From the IMG/VR virus record IMGVR_UViG_2703718851_000003: DNA of 32,999 bases; one strand, written 5' to 3'. This DNA is from a virus. Its lineage: Duplodnaviria > Heunggongvirae > Uroviricota > Caudoviricetes. The notes under the pieces are model-generated. The model was given only the letters and a program-made list of their open reading frames with translations. It was not told where the DNA came from and searched no databases. The number at the start of each line of letters is the position of its first letter. The first letter of the stretch is position 1. A program made the position numbers and the translations under genes. Shown piece by piece: positions 15,671 through 30,467 of the stretch.

Positions 15671-16168
15671 TTAAGCCGGTACGCCGCCAGCGGTACGCCA
15701 GACGGTGACCAGTTTTTCCAGTGAATGCTCACGCTGACCGTAACCGGCACCCGGCAGGGACGCCCAGATATTGCGACAGCGTGAAATGGCGCGCTCAATG
15801 CGTCCCGCCCGGATGTCATCCAGTGCACCGCGTTCGCGGATCAACTGAATGGCGAGTCTGTCCTGTGACAACGGACTGAAATCCGGCAGGGCAAGCTGTT
15901 TGCGGTAGTGCGGCCAGAACAGGTAAAGCTGCTGATAGCGACCGGAGGCCGTGGATTTTTCACCGCGACGGTTAAACACCTTCGCCGGTCGGCCATGCGC
16001 AAACGGGTGGTCACTGTAGTCAGTGAAAATTTCCGGCTTCCCGTCCAGTCCGGTGACTATCACGTCATAGCCCCGGTTTTTCGTCAGCGGATGATTCGCC
16101 GTCCCTTCGGACACGGCCAGCATGTCGAGAAAGGCCGCGATATTCTGATGCGTGTTAATTACCGGCAT
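15671..16168 (-). CDS. K: Endolysin (lysozyme) K
   Basis: 165-aa ORF; downstream of holin Y; length as P2 gpK. Confidence 0.9.
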   Translation of the reverse strand: MPVINTHQNIAAFLDMLAVSEGTANHPLTKNRGYDVIVTGLDGKPEIFTDYSDHPFAHGRPAKVFNRRGEKSTASGRYQQLYLFWPHYRKQLALPDFSPLSQDRLAIQLIRERGALDDIRAGRIERAISRCRNIWASLPGAGYGQREHSLEKLVTVWRTAGGVPA

Positions 16169-16449
16169 TACGGTTTCCCCCTGCCCTTAAAACGGCGCTG
16201 AATGGCAATCTCAATCACCTGATAACCGGCGATACCCAGCATGGAGCCGATGCCGCACACCGCAGGCAGTGACAGGTCAGGAAACTGCACCAGAACAACA
16301 CCGGCAACCATCGAGACAAAACCACCGAGCAACATGCGCCCGATAAACAGACGCGGGGTGATGGGTTCACCACCGGCAAGCACCTTGCCGACAACAATCA
16401 GCACCCCAATCATGAAAAGCGACAGGACGCTTTTTTCTTCTGCTGTCAT
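16168..16449 (-). CDS. Y: Holin Y
   Basis: 93-aa ORF with hydrophobic transmembrane segments; immediately upstream of the endolysin. Confidence 0.88.
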   Translation of the reverse strand: MTAEEKSVLSLFMIGVLIVVGKVLAGGEPITPRLFIGRMLLGGFVSMVAGVVLVQFPDLSLPAVCGIGSMLGIAGYQVIEIAIQRRFKGRGKP

Positions 16450-19998: not shown

Positions 19999-20171
19999 TG
20001 TCAGGAGTCCTGAATAGTGATTAGAGGAGTCACATGTCGGCATCAGTTTCCCGACGATGCGCATCCTCCGCCATCAGTCCCGGATGGCTTATCACTGACA
20101 CAACAGCACCTTAGCGAATCGCGGGGCGCGACTCAGTAGCCTTGCCGTGTATTCATCACGGCGAGGTATTC

Positions 20172-21944
20172 ATGACCATCACCACAGACACCACTCTTTT
20201 ACACGACCCGCGTCGTCAGGCGGCGCTGCTGTACTGGCAGGGGTTTTCCGTGCCGCAGATTGCCGCCATGTTGCAGATGAAACGCCCGACGGTGCAGAGC
20301 TGGAAACAGCGCGACGGCTGGGACAGCGTTGCCCCCATCAGCCGTGTCGAAATGAGTCTGGAAGCGCGGCTGACCCAGCTCATCATCAAACCGCAGAAAA
20401 CCGGCGGTGACTTCAAGGAAATTGACCTGCTGGGACGCCAGATTGAACGACTGGCACGGGTAAACCGTTACAGTCAGACCGGCAACGAGGCAGACCTTAA
20501 TCCGAACGTCGCTAACCGCAACAAAGGCGGGCGGCGCAAACCGAAAAAGAATTTTTTCAGTGACGAGGCCATCGAAAAGCTGGAGCAGATTTTCTTTGAG
20601 CAGTCTTTCGAATATCAGCTGCACTGGTATCGCGCCGGGCTTGAGCACCGCATCCGCGATATCCTGAAATCCCGCCAGATTGGCGCGACGTTTTATTTTT
20701 CCCGCGAGGCGCTGCTGCGCGCCCTGAAAACCGGCCATAACCAGATTTTTCTGTCGGCCAGTAAAACGCAGGCGTATGTGTTCCGCGAATACATCATCGC
20801 CTTTGCCCGTCTGGTTGACGTTGACCTGACCGGTGACCCGATTGTCCTGGGCAATAACGGTGCAAAACTGATTTTTCTCGGCACCAACTCCAACACCGCA
20901 CAGAGCCATAACGGCGACCTGTACGTCGATGAGATTTTCTGGATCCCGAATTTTCAGGTACTGCGTAAGGTGGCATCAGGTATGGCCTCACAGAGTCACC
21001 TGCGCTCGACCTATTTCTCCACCCCGTCCACGCTGGCGCACGACGCCTACCCGTTCTGGTCGGGTGAACTGTTCAACCGGGGACGCGCCAGCGCCGCCGA
21101 ACGCGTGGAAATCGACGTCAGTCATAACGCCCTTGCCGGAGGTCTTCTCTGTGCGGACGGCCAGTGGCGGCAGATTGTCACCATTGAGGACGCCCTGAAA
21201 GGCGGCTGCACGCTGTTCGACATTGAGCAGCTCAAACGCGAAAACAGCGCCGACGATTTTAAAAACCTGTTCATGTGTGAATTTGTTGACGACAAGGCAT
21301 CGGTGTTCCCGTTCGAGGAGCTGCAACGCTGCATGGTCGACACACTGGAAGAATGGGAAGACTATGCGCCGTTTGCCGCCAATCCGTTCGGCTCCCGCCC
21401 GGTATGGATTGGTTACGACCCGTCACACCGTGGCGACAGCGCCGGATGCGTGGTGCTGGCACCGCCGGTGGTGGCCGGTGGCAAATTCAGAATACTTGAG
21501 CGTCACCAGTGGAAAGGCATGGACTTTGCCACCCAGGCTGAATCCATCCGCAAACTCACCGAAAAATACAACGTCGAATACATCGGAATTGATGCCACCG
21601 GCCTCGGTGTCGGCGTGTTCCAGCTCGTGCGCTCGTTCTATCCCGCCGCGCGTGATATCCGCTACACGCCGGAAATGAAAACCGCAATGGTGCTCAAGGC
21701 AAAAGACGTTATCCGCCGTGGCTGTCTGGAATACGACGTCAGCGCCACCGACATCACCAGCTCGTTTATGGCTATCCGCAAGACCATGACCAGCAGCGGA
21801 CGCAGCGCCACCTATGAGGCCAGCCGCAGCGAGGAAGCCAGCCACGCCGACCTCGCCTGGGCGACCATGCACGCCCTGTTAAATGAGCCACTCACCGCCG
21901 GTATCAGCACCCCGCTGACATCCACCATTCTGGAGTTTTACTGA
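20172..21944 (+). CDS. P: Terminase large (ATPase) subunit P
   Basis: Track ORF trimmed to the ATG at 20172, giving 590 aa (MTITTDTTLLHDP...); GAGG Shine-Dalgarno; length as P2 gpP. Confidence 0.9.
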   Translation: MTITTDTTLLHDPRRQAALLYWQGFSVPQIAAMLQMKRPTVQSWKQRDGWDSVAPISRVEMSLEARLTQLIIKPQKTGGDFKEIDLLGRQIERLARVNRYSQTGNEADLNPNVANRNKGGRRKPKKNFFSDEAIEKLEQIFFEQSFEYQLHWYRAGLEHRIRDILKSRQIGATFYFSREALLRALKTGHNQIFLSASKTQAYVFREYIIAFARLVDVDLTGDPIVLGNNGAKLIFLGTNSNTAQSHNGDLYVDEIFWIPNFQVLRKVASGMASQSHLRSTYFSTPSTLAHDAYPFWSGELFNRGRASAAERVEIDVSHNALAGGLLCADGQWRQIVTIEDALKGGCTLFDIEQLKRENSADDFKNLFMCEFVDDKASVFPFEELQRCMVDTLEEWEDYAPFAANPFGSRPVWIGYDPSHRGDSAGCVVLAPPVVAGGKFRILERHQWKGMDFATQAESIRKLTEKYNVEYIGIDATGLGVGVFQLVRSFYPAARDIRYTPEMKTAMVLKAKDVIRRGCLEYDVSATDITSSFMAIRKTMTSSGRSATYEASRSEEASHADLAWATMHALLNEPLTAGISTPLTSTILEFY

Positions 21945-22978
21945 TGAGTAAGAAAAAAGGGAAAACACCGCAGCCAGCGGTGAAAACAATGACTGCCAGC
22001 GCCCCGAAAATGGAGGCATTCACCTTTGGTGAGCCGGTGCCGGTACTCGACCGCCGTGATATTCTGGATTACGTCGAGTGCATCAGTAACGGCAGATGGT
22101 ATGAGCCACCGGTCAGCTTTACCGGTCTGGCAAAAAGCCTGCGTGCTGCCGTGCATCACAGCTCACCGATTTACGTCAAACGTAATATTCTGGCCTCAAC
22201 GTTTATCCCGCACCCGTGGCTTTCCCAGCAGGATTTCAGCCGCTTTGTGCTGGATTTTCTGGTGTTCGGTAATGCGTTTCTGGAAAAGCGCTACAGCACT
22301 ACCGGTAAGGTCATCAGACTGGAAACCTCACCGGCAAAATATACCCGCCGTGGCGTGGAGGAGGATGTTTACTGGTGGGTGCCATCCTTCAACGAGCCGA
22401 CACCTTTCGCGCCCGGCTCCGTGTTTCACCTGCTGGAGCCGGATATCAATCAGGAGCTGTACGGCCTGCCGGAATATCTCAGCGCCCTTAACTCTGCCTG
22501 GCTGAATGAGTCGGCCACGCTGTTCCGCCGCAAGTATTACGAAAACGGCGCACATGCCGGATACATCATGTACGTCACCGATGCCGTGCAGGATCGCAAC
22601 GATATCGAAATGCTTCGCGAAAACATGGTGAAGTCGAAAGGCCGCAACAACTTTAAAAACCTGTTTCTCTACGCCCCACAGGGAAAAGCCGACGGTATTA
22701 AAATTATCCCGCTCAGTGAAGTGGCAACGAAGGACGATTTTTTTAATATCAAAAAAGCCAGCGCCGCAGACCTGCTGGACGCGCACCGCATCCCTTTTCA
22801 GTTGATGGGCGGCAAGCCGGAGAACGTCGGGTCGCTGGGTGATATTGAGAAAGTGGCAAAGGTCTTTGTCCGCAATGAGCTTATCCCGTTACAGGACAGG
22901 ATCCGCGAGATAAACGGCTGGCTCGGTCAGGAGGTCATCCGCTTTAAAAACTACTCACTGGACACTGACAACGGCTGA
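21944..22978 (+). CDS. Q: Portal protein Q
   Basis: 344-aa ORF; ATGA overlap with the P stop; followed by a terminator and cos; length as P2 gpQ. Confidence 0.92.
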   Translation: MSKKKGKTPQPAVKTMTASAPKMEAFTFGEPVPVLDRRDILDYVECISNGRWYEPPVSFTGLAKSLRAAVHHSSPIYVKRNILASTFIPHPWLSQQDFSRFVLDFLVFGNAFLEKRYSTTGKVIRLETSPAKYTRRGVEEDVYWWVPSFNEPTPFAPGSVFHLLEPDINQELYGLPEYLSALNSAWLNESATLFRRKYYENGAHAGYIMYVTDAVQDRNDIEMLRENMVKSKGRNNFKNLFLYAPQGKADGIKIIPLSEVATKDDFFNIKKASAADLLDAHRIPFQLMGGKPENVGSLGDIEKVAKVFVRNELIPLQDRIREINGWLGQEVIRFKNYSLDTDNG

Positions 22979-22983
22979 ACATC

Positions 22984-23005
22984 GCCGCCTGCGGGCGGCT
23001 TTTTT
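22984..23005 (+). terminator. Rho-independent terminator downstream of Q
   Basis: gccgcc-tgcg-ggcggc stem-loop followed by six T, starting 6 nt after the Q stop. Confidence 0.85.
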
Positions 23006-23166: not shown

Positions 23167-23322
23167 CGCCCGCTTCGTGGGGCTGTTTTAATGCAGTTGC
23201 ATGAACACTCCAAGAGCGCGCCAGCACTGGCGGCGCCCACACGTAACGGGGAAGGAAAACGCATGCGATTCGATGCAGTAATGCATGCGGAGCTGAAAAT
23301 GGCAGAAAATACTGAAAAACGC

Positions 23323-23352
23323 ATAAAAAACCGGCATTCAGGTTGCCGGTTT
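23323..23352 (-). terminator. Rho-independent terminator on the minus strand
   Basis: Minus strand AAACCGGCA-acctgaa-TGCCGGTT followed by TTTTTT; about 18 nt after the stop of the 33-aa hydrophobic ORF. Confidence 0.7.
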
Positions 23353-23370
23353 GAGTCAGCTTCATTGTGG

Positions 23371-23472
23371 TTACTTGTCGCGCAATGCGCCAATAATACT
23401 GGTAAGGCAACAAGTGGCAACAATCAGCAAAAAAACCGTCGTCCACGGATTTTCATAAACGAGAGATAACAT
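23371..23472 (-). CDS. Candidate 33-aa hydrophobic membrane peptide (MLSLVYENPWTTVFLLIVATCCLTSIIGALRDK)
   Basis: Below the ORF-track size cut-off; found by translating the minus strand. Single transmembrane-like helix, terminator right after the stop, weak and distant AGGA ribosome-binding site. Confidence 0.3.
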   Translation of the reverse strand: MLSLVYENPWTTVFLLIVATCCLTSIIGALRDK

Positions 23473-23488
23473 ATTGATAAAGATCCTT

Positions 23489-23620
23489 TTATTTGTTCAT
23501 TCTGATGTGGTTTAAAAGGTGTTTGATAACGACCGTAAGCTCATCTTTACTGGCTTGCTCGACCATTTTTTCGGTGTAGCTTTCCACTTCGCGGGAACTC
23601 AGGTCGTTATTTGAGGCCAT
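23489..23620 (-). CDS. Candidate small hydrophilic protein (43 aa from ATG 23620; 64 aa if started at 23683)
   Basis: In-frame portion of track ORF 23489..23770 that does not overlap the divergent 145-aa gene; ribosome-binding sites weak; coding status uncertain. Confidence 0.25.
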   Translation of the reverse strand: MASNNDLSSREVESYTEKMVEQASKDELTVVIKHLLNHIRMNK

Positions 23621-23681
23621 TACAGTGAGTCTCTTTGCCCAGTCGGCATAAGGGTCTTTAATTGATGAAAGGGAATTATGC

Positions 23682-24119
23682 ATGTCCAAAAACCTCGAAT
23701 TATTTAACCAGCAGACGGCTGAAATCTTTGCGGTGCTATGGGATAACTTTCCTGTACCACAAGTCATCACCTACAAAAAATTTAACGCCGCGTTACCTGA
23801 TGACTACTTTGACCAACTTAACTCACCGGAAATGAAAGCACTGAATCAGTTGCGTAGTGTGGTTGATGGCACATTCACTTTCCTAAGCGAAAACGGCTAT
23901 ATTCTGTACGGAACAGACCATCAGACCGGTTTTCATGATGTGCGCCTGACCGAGAAAGCACTCGCGGTGCTCAACAAAAAACCCGAAGCACTTGGCGGTA
24001 ATGAAACGATGGGAGATAAAATTATCAGTGCAGTAAAAGACGGGACTCCAGGTGTCATTGCTGGAGCAGTGACAAACCTGTTGACTCTTGGTGTTAATTT
24101 TGTGACGTCAGCTTCATAG
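23682..24119 (+). CDS. Hypothetical 145-aa protein with a C-terminal hydrophobic tail (accessory cargo)
   Basis: ATG start with AAGGG Shine-Dalgarno 8 nt upstream; no recognisable motif; C-terminus GTPGVIAGAVTNLLTLGVNFV is hydrophobic; convergent with the RT gene. Confidence 0.6.
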   Translation: MSKNLELFNQQTAEIFAVLWDNFPVPQVITYKKFNAALPDDYFDQLNSPEMKALNQLRSVVDGTFTFLSENGYILYGTDHQTGFHDVRLTEKALAVLNKKPEALGGNETMGDKIISAVKDGTPGVIAGAVTNLLTLGVNFVTSAS

Positions 24120-24243: not shown

Positions 24244-25194
24244 TTAATTTGCAGTATTAGCCTTTAAAGTAAGCACCTTAGATTTGTAACGTTGCTCAAT
24301 CACTCCCATTGAATGCAAACGACCAAAGAGCTTTTTGGCAATGATTGTTTCTCTCGCATTTTCGGCGTCTTTAATTATTTTCCAATAATCTATTTCCCTA
24401 GCCATCAAAAAATGCTGCTCATTCCTAACTTTTAATGCATTGCCTAATACAATAACTCCAGTTACCAACTTAGGCTTATCTCTGGCATATAGTTTTGTTT
24501 TCGTTGGGTGTATAACATGCCCATGCTTATTAACGATCTTACGAATTACAGCGCAGAACAATCGATTTACGTTACTACCTGAAAAAGTGAGATCATCAAC
24601 ATAAACAGTCATGTTAACTCGTAACTTTTGGCAAAGTTGATATATTTCACCAAACATTCTTGAATTTGCAAAATATGCCAACGGCATACTGATGCGACTA
24701 CCTGTTGGCAATCGGTCATGACAAGTACATATGTGGGACAAAACATCAGCAACATCAGATGACATTTTCATCACCGAAAAGAAAAAAGAAAATATCATCC
24801 CTCTTGTAGTTGATGGAAAAAAAGCTTTAATATCTGTTGTCATCATCTTTTCATTATTAAGATGAGCTTTAGCATTCGTCACATTAGAGCACTTCTTCTT
24901 CCCTGAGTGCAGATATTCTGGCAAAGCAATCCGCGATAACAAACTTGCAATTCGTGTATGTACAAGTTCTAGTTTTTCTAAAGGCTTTTGTATTTTTCGT
25001 GCTTTCCCTTTTTTAGAAAGCTGCTCAAAAACGGAATAGTTTCCTTCATCTTTTCTCAAAGAGTATAAATCATCAAGACTAACACAAAGCAAATTCGCCA
25101 GTTTTCTTTTACTTTTGAGTTTATAAAATGGCGAATCCATTATGTCATAAGATTTATTTTTAGTATTAACTTTAAGCTTTTTCCGTTTTTTCAT
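24244..25194 (-). CDS. Reverse transcriptase, short retron-like type (no C-terminal effector domain)
   Basis: 316-aa ORF with RT motifs in canonical order: NAKAHLNN, DIKAFFPS (motif A), LPTGSRISMPLAYF (motif B), YVDD (motif C), then KLVTGVIV (the VTG triplet typical of retron RTs). Pattern resembles the Ec86 retron RT as I recall it. Confidence 0.85.
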   Translation of the reverse strand: MKKRKKLKVNTKNKSYDIMDSPFYKLKSKRKLANLLCVSLDDLYSLRKDEGNYSVFEQLSKKGKARKIQKPLEKLELVHTRIASLLSRIALPEYLHSGKKKCSNVTNAKAHLNNEKMMTTDIKAFFPSTTRGMIFSFFFSVMKMSSDVADVLSHICTCHDRLPTGSRISMPLAYFANSRMFGEIYQLCQKLRVNMTVYVDDLTFSGSNVNRLFCAVIRKIVNKHGHVIHPTKTKLYARDKPKLVTGVIVLGNALKVRNEQHFLMAREIDYWKIIKDAENARETIIAKKLFGRLHSMGVIEQRYKSKVLTLKANTAN

Positions 25195-25492
25195 TTTTAT
25201 TACTTACCCACTCCAGAACATCCAGAACTTTACCGGCTAAATTTAAACGCAATCGCTTAGACAAACGGCCTTGCGTGCCTAATGATTCCGAAAAGAATAC
25301 TAAAGAGGATACTGGTATGTCGAAATGGGAGGCGTAACGCTCTAAGACTTCAATCGACGGTGACCAAACTCCGCTTTCAAGCGATACTATTTTGTCTTTT
25401 GGAATACCTAAAGATGAAGATAACTCAACTATTGATTCTTTATGGTATTGCCTTATTAAACGAAGGGCTTTATGTAACATAGGCAACTCCAT
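25172..25492 (-). CDS. Xre/Cro-type helix-turn-helix protein, overlapping the RT start (start may be the ATG at 25480, GGAG ribosome-binding site)
   Basis: 106-aa ORF; HTH segment ...ESIVELSSSLGIPKDKIVSLESG...; 23-nt overlap with the RT ORF suggests translational coupling. Confidence 0.75.
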   Translation of the reverse strand: MELPMLHKALRLIRQYHKESIVELSSSLGIPKDKIVSLESGVWSPSIEVLERYASHFDIPVSSLVFFSESLGTQGRLSKRLRLNLAGKVLDVLEWVSNKNEKTEKA

Positions 25493-25516
25493 GCTATTGA
25501 AACTAGGGAGGACGCA

Positions 25517-25672
25517 TTACTCATCACCCCCTTCGAAGTAGTCCAGTGCTCGAGTAACTAAATCAAACAGTCTAATACCCCATTTGATTAATTTCCAAGC
25601 GTAACCAGCCCACTTTTTCAGGTTTGACTTGTTCTGCGCCTGCTGTTCGTTGGTTAATTTATCATTCTTCAT
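25517..25672 (-). CDS. 51-aa small protein (MKNDKLTNEQQAQNKSNLKKWAGYAWKLIKWGIRLFDLVTRALDYFEGGDE), first ORF of the RT operon
   Basis: Internal ATG of track ORF 25517..25909 preceded by a strong AAGGAG Shine-Dalgarno at 6-nt spacing; the Shine-Dalgarno is embedded in the 3' arm of a hairpin. Confidence 0.5.
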   Translation of the reverse strand: MKNDKLTNEQQAQNKSNLKKWAGYAWKLIKWGIRLFDLVTRALDYFEGGDE

Positions 25673-30404: not shown

Positions 30405-30467
30405 GACTTTCTCCAGGCAAAAAGAAGCCCCGCACGATTAAGTGCGTTAAAAACTCTGGTTAATTAC

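Follow-up and report, generated by a model that had tools for sequence, protein, structure and literature searches.

Enterobacterial small single-pass inner-membrane proteins and the type I toxins LdrD, TisB and Fst form a size class that annotation easily overlooks. Here we describe a 33-residue peptide of this size class, whose open reading frame (ORF), referred to below as ORF33, lies in a 32,999-nucleotide stretch of DNA (IMG/VR record IMGVR_UViG_2703718851_000003, hereafter the window) that is a nearly entire P2/186-like prophage. With these proteins, ORF33 shares a length of about 30 residues, a single predicted transmembrane (TM) helix, a basic C-terminal tail and a weak ribosome-binding site (RBS). 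It differs from the type I toxins in having no family match and no detected antisense RNA or structured leader, and in being, apparently, the distal cistron of a prophage operon.

Three described systems are closest to this locus. First, the slot that separates replication gene A from portal gene Q (gpA-gpQ) in P2-like phages is a hotspot for accessory and anti-phage genes (Rousset et al, 2022, PMC9122126), and P2 is described as holding tin and old there (Odegrip et al, 2006, as cited in PMC9122126). ORF33 sits in the same slot, bounded by genes A and Q, adjoining the cohesive-end site (cos) and accompanied by variable cargo, and two of its neighbour proteins (WP_000042038 and WP_000551925) are tabulated for the gpA-gpQ locus in the supplement of Rousset et al (PMC9122126). 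Whereas the P2 hotspot cargo swaps, ORF33 belongs to a trio, with a gene for a 64-residue protein and a divergent winged-helix gene, that forms a semi-conserved flank of the slot and for which an anti-phage role is a candidate one. Second, the GenBank record of phage 186 lists “t95b; p95 transcript terminator” at 30436-30463 of the 30624-bp genome, where it closes the p95 SOS operon (tum-orf97) directly behind orf97. The window carries an alignable terminator at the corresponding place, likewise about 160 bp short of the right cohesive end, except that the 64-aa and 33-aa genes are interposed. Third, type VI retrons (Retron-Vpa2, Retron-Sen3) have the order small protein (SP), helix-turn-helix protein (HTH), reverse transcriptase (RT), with the small toxin encoded 5′ of the HTH gene inside the retron RNA (bioRxiv 10.1101/2025.10.22.683967; 10.64898/2026.04.27.721009), and one such retron lies beside ORF33.

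Considering the evidence set out below, ORF33 is probably a genuine gene for a small inner-membrane protein, placed second in an accessory operon of two genes that ends at a 186-type terminator, constrained at the protein level and dispensable.

Selection on the ORF33 reading frame

We read the ORF, the downstream hairpin and cos from the letters of the window, and this confirmed the coordinates and sequences given by a first-pass annotation of the same DNA (Table 1). The single TM helix proposed there is supported by hydropathy, as the best 19-residue Kyte-Doolittle window (residues 12-30) has a mean of 2.38. In the predicted topology, the N-terminal YENPW motif would be outside, residues ~11-30 would span the membrane and the basic C-terminus would be inside. 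The RBS, already suspected to be weak, is present as a sub-optimal AAGGA element. It is conserved or stronger in intact relatives, some of which carry GAGGAG with a 9-nt spacer, and it is degraded in a broken copy (L079). Because the surrounding 4-kb stretch contains 61 ORFs of at least 20 residues, ORF33 by itself is within what chance would produce, and the case therefore rests on comparison.

Of 5426 complete E. coli genomes, 95 contain homologous DNA, as do 15 phage records, and the ORF recurs in prophages of Escherichia, Salmonella, Klebsiella, Citrobacter, Yersinia and Scandinavium. We assembled three sets of loci. The first was anchored on the terminator alone and is hence unbiased as to the ORF, the second was anchored on the 64-aa protein, and the third comprised the remotest homologues of that protein (Serratia, Yersinia, Citrobacter, Klebsiella, Scandinavium and metagenomes). 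We then listed every single-nucleotide change that the consensus of codons 2-33 allows and scored which of these alleles occur among 54 unique homologues. In the frame of ORF33, 48/69 synonymous alleles were seen versus 90/219 non-synonymous ones (odds ratio (OR) 3.3, P = 5e-5), and the excess persisted when the test was limited to transversions (P = 0.0035). When the remaining five frames were scored in this way, the other two sense frames gave ORs of 0.9-1.1. Antisense frame -2 gave an OR of 2.09 (P = 0.012), which we read as an echo of shared variable positions, this frame containing stops and no ORF.

The same preference is visible in copies that have diverged far. In the copy from Yersinia ruckeri (MLNLIYENPWPTCYLMVIASMCINSIIRALRGK), 35 of 96 nucleotides are changed relative to the window, distributed 10/7/18 by codon position, yet all 33 codons and the TM core are kept. 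The Scandinavium copy has likewise diverged with its 33 codons and hydrophobic core kept (diverged copies differ at 29-35 of 96 nucleotides). Between SW9 and locus L075 there are 10 synonymous changes and 1 non-synonymous change, and the pairwise ratio of non-synonymous to synonymous rates (dN/dS) is 0.1-0.3 for deep pairs. Tree-based Fitch counts are inflated by homoplasy and recombination and were used qualitatively only. Given the synonymous excess in its own frame, the diverged intact copies and the retained RBS, we concluded from sequence comparison that ORF33 is, or recently was, protein-coding; judged by these substitution patterns, purifying selection acts on the encoded amino acids for as long as the gene remains intact. 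Frame conservation at homologous loci, which the first-pass annotation had proposed as a check, thus came out in favor of coding.

On 566 contigs, the identical peptide already has a database entry as a “hypothetical protein” (for example, ELG37235.1 from E. coli KTE84), and individual variants, which have UniProt entries, are found on up to 1000 or more contigs. A protein search with a 41-aa in-frame extension as the query returned relatives that are all 33 residues long. There was no family match in Pfam, NCBIfam, PHROG or PADLOC: at E ≤ 1, Pfam gave only a 10-residue match to DUF883_C (E = 0.45), and NCBIfam gave nothing at E ≤ 10 for three variants. The first-pass reader had not recognized the peptide as Hok, Ldr, Ibs, TisB, ShoB, DinQ or ZorO, and the Pfam and NCBIfam results agree. 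A literature search for the peptide string returned nothing relevant.

On the opposite strand, the RefSeq Prokaryotic Genome Annotation Pipeline (PGAP) calls an ORF of 89-92 residues (WP_001177885.1 in O157:H7; 23191-23469 (+) in the window), which spans the terminator, the cos-proximal repeats and ORF33. Its length ranges from 45 to 92 residues among relatives and its frame (-0) lacks a coding signal (OR 0.87). It appears to be an erroneous call occupying the place of the real small ORF.

A proposed two-gene unit ending at a homologue of t95b

The 64-aa gene ends 16 nt before the ATG of ORF33, and the two genes stay together in genera ranging from Escherichia to Yersinia and Serratia. The first-pass annotation had allowed either 43 or 64 residues for this upstream ORF. 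The longer form holds, with its start at the ATG at 23683, because the Klebsiella/Yersinia clade has Leu in place of the internal Met that would begin the 43-aa form. The encoded protein is hydrophilic with a predicted three-helix structure, its NNDLSSRE and LLNHIR motifs are invariant, and third codon positions are about twice as variable as first and second ones; a fold search gave no significant match. SW9-type phages retain just ~57 nt 5′ of the gene, presumably its promoter region. SEN1-type phages lack the 64-aa gene owing to a short deletion, and only the RBS, ORF33 and the terminator remain. In SEN1 (L005, 2455-2622), the deletion joined ORF33 in frame to an orf97-like remnant, yielding the annotated 55-aa SEN1_42.

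The winged-helix protein encoded by the divergent gene is a putative regulator of the module. The two divergent start codons (23682-23684 (+) and 23683-23681 (-)) share 2 nt inside the palindrome ATGCAT, and the promoter of either gene must therefore lie within the other.

At the other end, a hairpin begins 18 nt past the ORF33 stop codon (23352-23328; AAACCGGCA, ACCTGAA loop, TGCCGGTTT) and is followed by a T-run that reaches 23325. With a predicted free energy of -14.8 kcal/mol (z = -3.5 versus shuffles), the intrinsic terminator that had been reported next to cos is genuine. It had also been taken for a cap belonging to the peptide gene, and this part did not hold. The hairpin can be aligned with t95b (GACCGGTA...AAGCCGGTTTTTTT in 186 versus AACCGGCA...TGCCGGTTTTTT in the window), as can the block from the hairpin to cos, including its TGCATGC-type repeats. 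The stem is unchanged in 44 IMG/VR loci (on contigs retrieved by the stem pattern), and the terminator is retained where the peptide region is absent; there, the 3′ end of an orf97-like gene abuts the hairpin, as in 186. On these grounds, the terminator is a positional and sequence homologue of 186 t95b and a feature of the phage backbone, not a peptide-specific cap. A scan of genome contigs for the terminator pattern gave two loci only, one Citrobacter prophage and one unrelated Marinomonas match, and a literature search on t95b returned nothing relevant.

By its likeness to t95b, the element in the window would putatively end transcripts, and as a backbone terminator it would stop accessory and SOS-operon transcription short of the packaging site. 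The block between the hairpin and the cohesive end is conserved with 186, its distal part also with P2, and is presumed from its position to be a packaging-recognition region. A strong terminator-like hairpin (GCCGCCTGCGGGCGGC followed by T6; 22984-22999 (+)) is also found directly after the portal gene, facing cos, and convergent terminators thus bracket cos.

Putting these elements together, we propose that an accessory (moron) operon of two genes occupies the cos-proximal edge of the gpA-gpQ hotspot, with the three-helix protein encoded first and the peptide second. Its transcription would run toward cos and end at the t95b-type terminator. The peptide would be translated from the weak RBS directly behind the upstream stop codon and would enter the inner membrane with its YENPW end out and its basic tail in, to act as an accessory factor of the lysogen.

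Recurrent loss and competing explanations

Several observations weigh against this proposal. The 11-nt spacing between the RBS and the start codon is long, PGAP does not call ORF33 in RefSeq, and none of the winged-helix, 64-aa and peptide genes has a homologue of known function. A search for sigma-70-like promoters found none for the 64-aa gene, and so none for the operon, and none for the winged-helix gene. When only close relatives are compared, variable sites are distributed 12/12/16 by codon position and the synonymous fraction is 0.38 versus 0.28 expected (P = 0.07). Finally, the ORF has been disrupted independently at least 11 times, and knock-outs are not depleted: 5/7 possible start-loss, 5/10 nonsense and 3/7 stop-loss alleles were seen, so that disruptive alleles (13/24) are as well represented as the others (135/282; Fisher P = 0.67).

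The losses take many forms. Start codons have changed to CTG, AAG, AGG (twice), ACA and ACG, one start has been deleted, and there are several 1-nt frameshifts. Trp10 (TGG, 23443-23445) has become a stop codon in three lineages, as TAG in an IMG/VR phage, TAG in Serratia and TGA in a Citrobacter/metagenome clade (L079, L097/L103 and L101/L107/L108, the remainder of the frame being open in L108). Overall, ORF33 is intact in 71/103 loci that have the region; of the 45 terminator-anchored loci, 28 have an intact copy, 9 an altered and 3 a partial one, and 5 none. In these counts, L080 and L086, both of which carry a 1-nt spacer deletion, are scored as intact. The 64-aa gene is full length in 32/35 terminator-anchored loci, despite being twice as long. 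As the knock-outs recur and the 64-aa gene stays intact, the peptide is accessory and dispensable to the phage. Its loss is tolerated or possibly even favored, and the peptide may be costly.

The undepleted knock-outs and the missing PGAP call would also be expected if ORF33 were untranslated, with conservation arising because the DNA near cos, or the 3′ untranslated region (UTR) of the 64-aa mRNA, serves a non-coding role, such as an integration host factor (IHF) site, a packaging accessory site or a small RNA (sRNA). The only match to the IHF consensus WATCAANNNNTTR in the window overlaps the ORF33 start codon (TATCAATATGTTA, with an A-tract 5′ of it, 23467-23479 (-)) and is perfect, and the consensus survives in five start-loss variants. 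Likewise, a promoter-like TTGCCA-16-TATTAT (10/12 positions; 23393-23420 (-)) lies within ORF33 and could give an RNA of ~60 nt ending at the terminator. However, one IHF match is what chance would provide (1.3 expected), and SW9-type copies break it yet retain the ORF. Nucleotide-level constraint on codons 1-10, as from an IHF site or RNA element, was rejected (synonymous alleles 13/20 versus 35/49, P = 0.77; no depletion), and an internal hairpin in this region showed no compensatory changes. A short sRNA from the internal promoter was also rejected, since neither the -10 element nor a small GCGC hairpin is conserved in relatives. The terminator is the only conserved RNA structure and there is no Rfam match, and the region is missing from 186 and other phages that have the terminator and cos. 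A non-coding explanation is hard to reconcile with frame-specific selection, that is, with a synonymous excess confined to the frame of the ORF and a 3-nt periodicity in deep comparisons, and we consider it unlikely.

If ORF33 is a real accessory membrane protein, as we think probable, we favor an exclusion-type peptide or an effector acting at the membrane, with a cost on expression, over a lysis protein or a type I toxin, and the recurrent knock-outs are compatible with toxicity. A sharper form of this reading, which does not contradict it, would make the peptide the toxic, membrane-depolarizing part of a small protein toxin-antitoxin or abortive-infection module, restrained by the 64-aa protein and perhaps by the winged-helix protein. 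The peptide is hydrophobic with a basic tail, it follows a small soluble protein in the operon, it lies in a defense hotspot, and its repeated knock-outs, including three independent Trp10 stops, leave an intact 64-aa gene beside a dead peptide gene, as orphan antitoxins would. Type VI retrons offer a precedent for a protein partner that neutralizes a small hydrophobic toxin. Against this, SEN1-type phages keep an intact ORF33 with neither the 64-aa nor the winged-helix gene, and no component has a match in PADLOC or to any other family. The SEN1-type counter-evidence is weak, as the peptide may be read there solely from the SOS operon. We therefore regard such a toxin-antitoxin module as a tentative possibility. 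It is also conceivable, though doubtful, that the winged-helix, 64-aa and 33-aa genes form an unrecognized three-gene module of P2/186-type prophages. In such a module, the peptide would depolarize the membrane as an effector of abortive infection, addiction or superinfection exclusion, with the 64-aa protein restraining it and the winged-helix protein regulating the whole, and the knock-outs would reflect toxicity to the host.

The first-pass annotation had suggested a type I toxin, in which an antisense or nearby sRNA represses the mRNA of a toxic peptide. In size, hydrophobicity (33 residues, 2.38) and basic C-terminus, ORF33 does resemble Ldr, TisB and Fst-type toxins, and frequent inactivation would fit. 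The rest of the expected architecture was not found. Pfam and NCBIfam gave no toxin family and Rfam no antitoxin RNA (E ≤ 1). A consensus scan of the plus strand, which a weak promoter could escape, found nothing promoter-like within 400 nt of the ORF, and the plus-strand hairpin lacks a T-run, being followed by TTTGAG only. The 183-nt leader folds with z = -1.5, no better than shuffled sequence, and in the consensus fold of relatives the terminator alone finds support, with an unfavorable covariation term. In addition, ORF33 lies directly behind another cistron instead of a long structured 5′ UTR. A type I system is thus very improbable here.

A lysis-type role (holin, antiholin or spanin-like), which the same annotation had raised, has even less to recommend it beyond the peptide being a small single-TM product of a phage. 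The holin (PF04550, E = 3e-42) is encoded at 16168-16449, 7 kb away in the late operon beside the tail protein X gene, whereas ORF33 lies in the accessory hotspot in early/SOS orientation. The peptide gene is, moreover, frequently disrupted, and P2, 186 and other members of the family lack it. We give this role almost no credence.

Prophage setting and significance

The cargo beside the 64-aa/33-aa pair varies among relatives and includes type VI retron, Fic, DinI, ComEC-like and SMC-like ATPase genes. In the window it is a complete type VI retron (Table 1), whose presumed RNA has no match to any Rfam model. The SP toxin of such retrons is, like the ORF33 product, small with a hydrophobic segment, and occupies the same hotspot near the HTH-RT pair. 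We considered whether the peptide is part of the retron and rejected this: the type VI small toxin sits 5′ of the HTH gene, a position taken in the window by a 51-aa ORF, while ORF33 lies beyond the divergent gene downstream of RT and, unlike the retron SP, is also found without a retron, next to Fic, DinI or ComEC-like cargo.

Some relatives have a second cargo site across cos, in the cos-to-portal interval (L098 3252-3847, L101 3094-5195, L007 3668-5247 and L103 3312-5195), which holds HicAB, AAA_15/AAA_21 ATPases, a P-loop NTPase pair, or phospholipase-like and ankyrin genes. There is no cargo at this site in the window.

Table 1 Features of the ORF33 locus and its surroundings, in window coordinates
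Feature	Position	Strand	Remarks
33-codon ORF (ORF33), predicted single-pass membrane peptide MLSLVYENPWTTVFLLIVATCCLTSIIGALRDK	23371..23472	-	ATG 23472-23470, TAA 23373-23371
Shine-Dalgarno-like AAGGA	23484..23488	-	11 nt 5′ of the ORF33 ATG, straight after the stop of the 64-aa gene
64-aa hydrophilic protein gene	23489..23683	-	phrog_2454; first cistron
145-aa winged-helix (MarR-like fold) protein gene	23682..24119	+	phrog_2266; divergent
Intrinsic terminator	23325..23352	-	9-bp stem, 7-nt loop, T6; homologue of 186 t95b
Cos-proximal conserved block with TGCATGC-type repeats	23167..23324		Interval from terminator to cohesive end
P2-type 19-nt cohesive end (cos) GGCGAGGCGGGGAAAGCAC	23166-23148	-	Identical to annotated P2 cosR
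Terminase ATPase gene	20142-21944		
Portal gene Q	21944-22978		
Replication gene A	28375-26081		
Type VI retron, complete, SP-HTH-RT order	24244-25672	-	Non-coding stretch upstream to ~26080
Retron RT	24244-25194	-	PADLOC RT_VI, E = 4e-105
Retron HTH	25172-25492	-	PADLOC HTH_VI, E = 8e-31
51-aa ORF (MKNDKLTNEQQ...)	25672-25517	-	Occupies the position of the type VI small-protein toxin

The terminator and the hotspot were already known, and the peptide family is an uncharacterized one of a familiar type, that of small single-pass membrane proteins carried as prophage accessories; the finding overturns nothing known. If the peptide is made, a genuine small membrane protein is missing from the RefSeq annotation of many Escherichia, Salmonella and Klebsiella prophages. 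Encoded in the best-studied defense hotspot of P2-like phages, the peptide, together with its two partner genes, offers an inexpensive and clearly delimited candidate for an exclusion factor or small membrane effector. The combination of protein-level constraint with frequent loss also makes ORF33 a useful example of how accessory small ORFs evolve.

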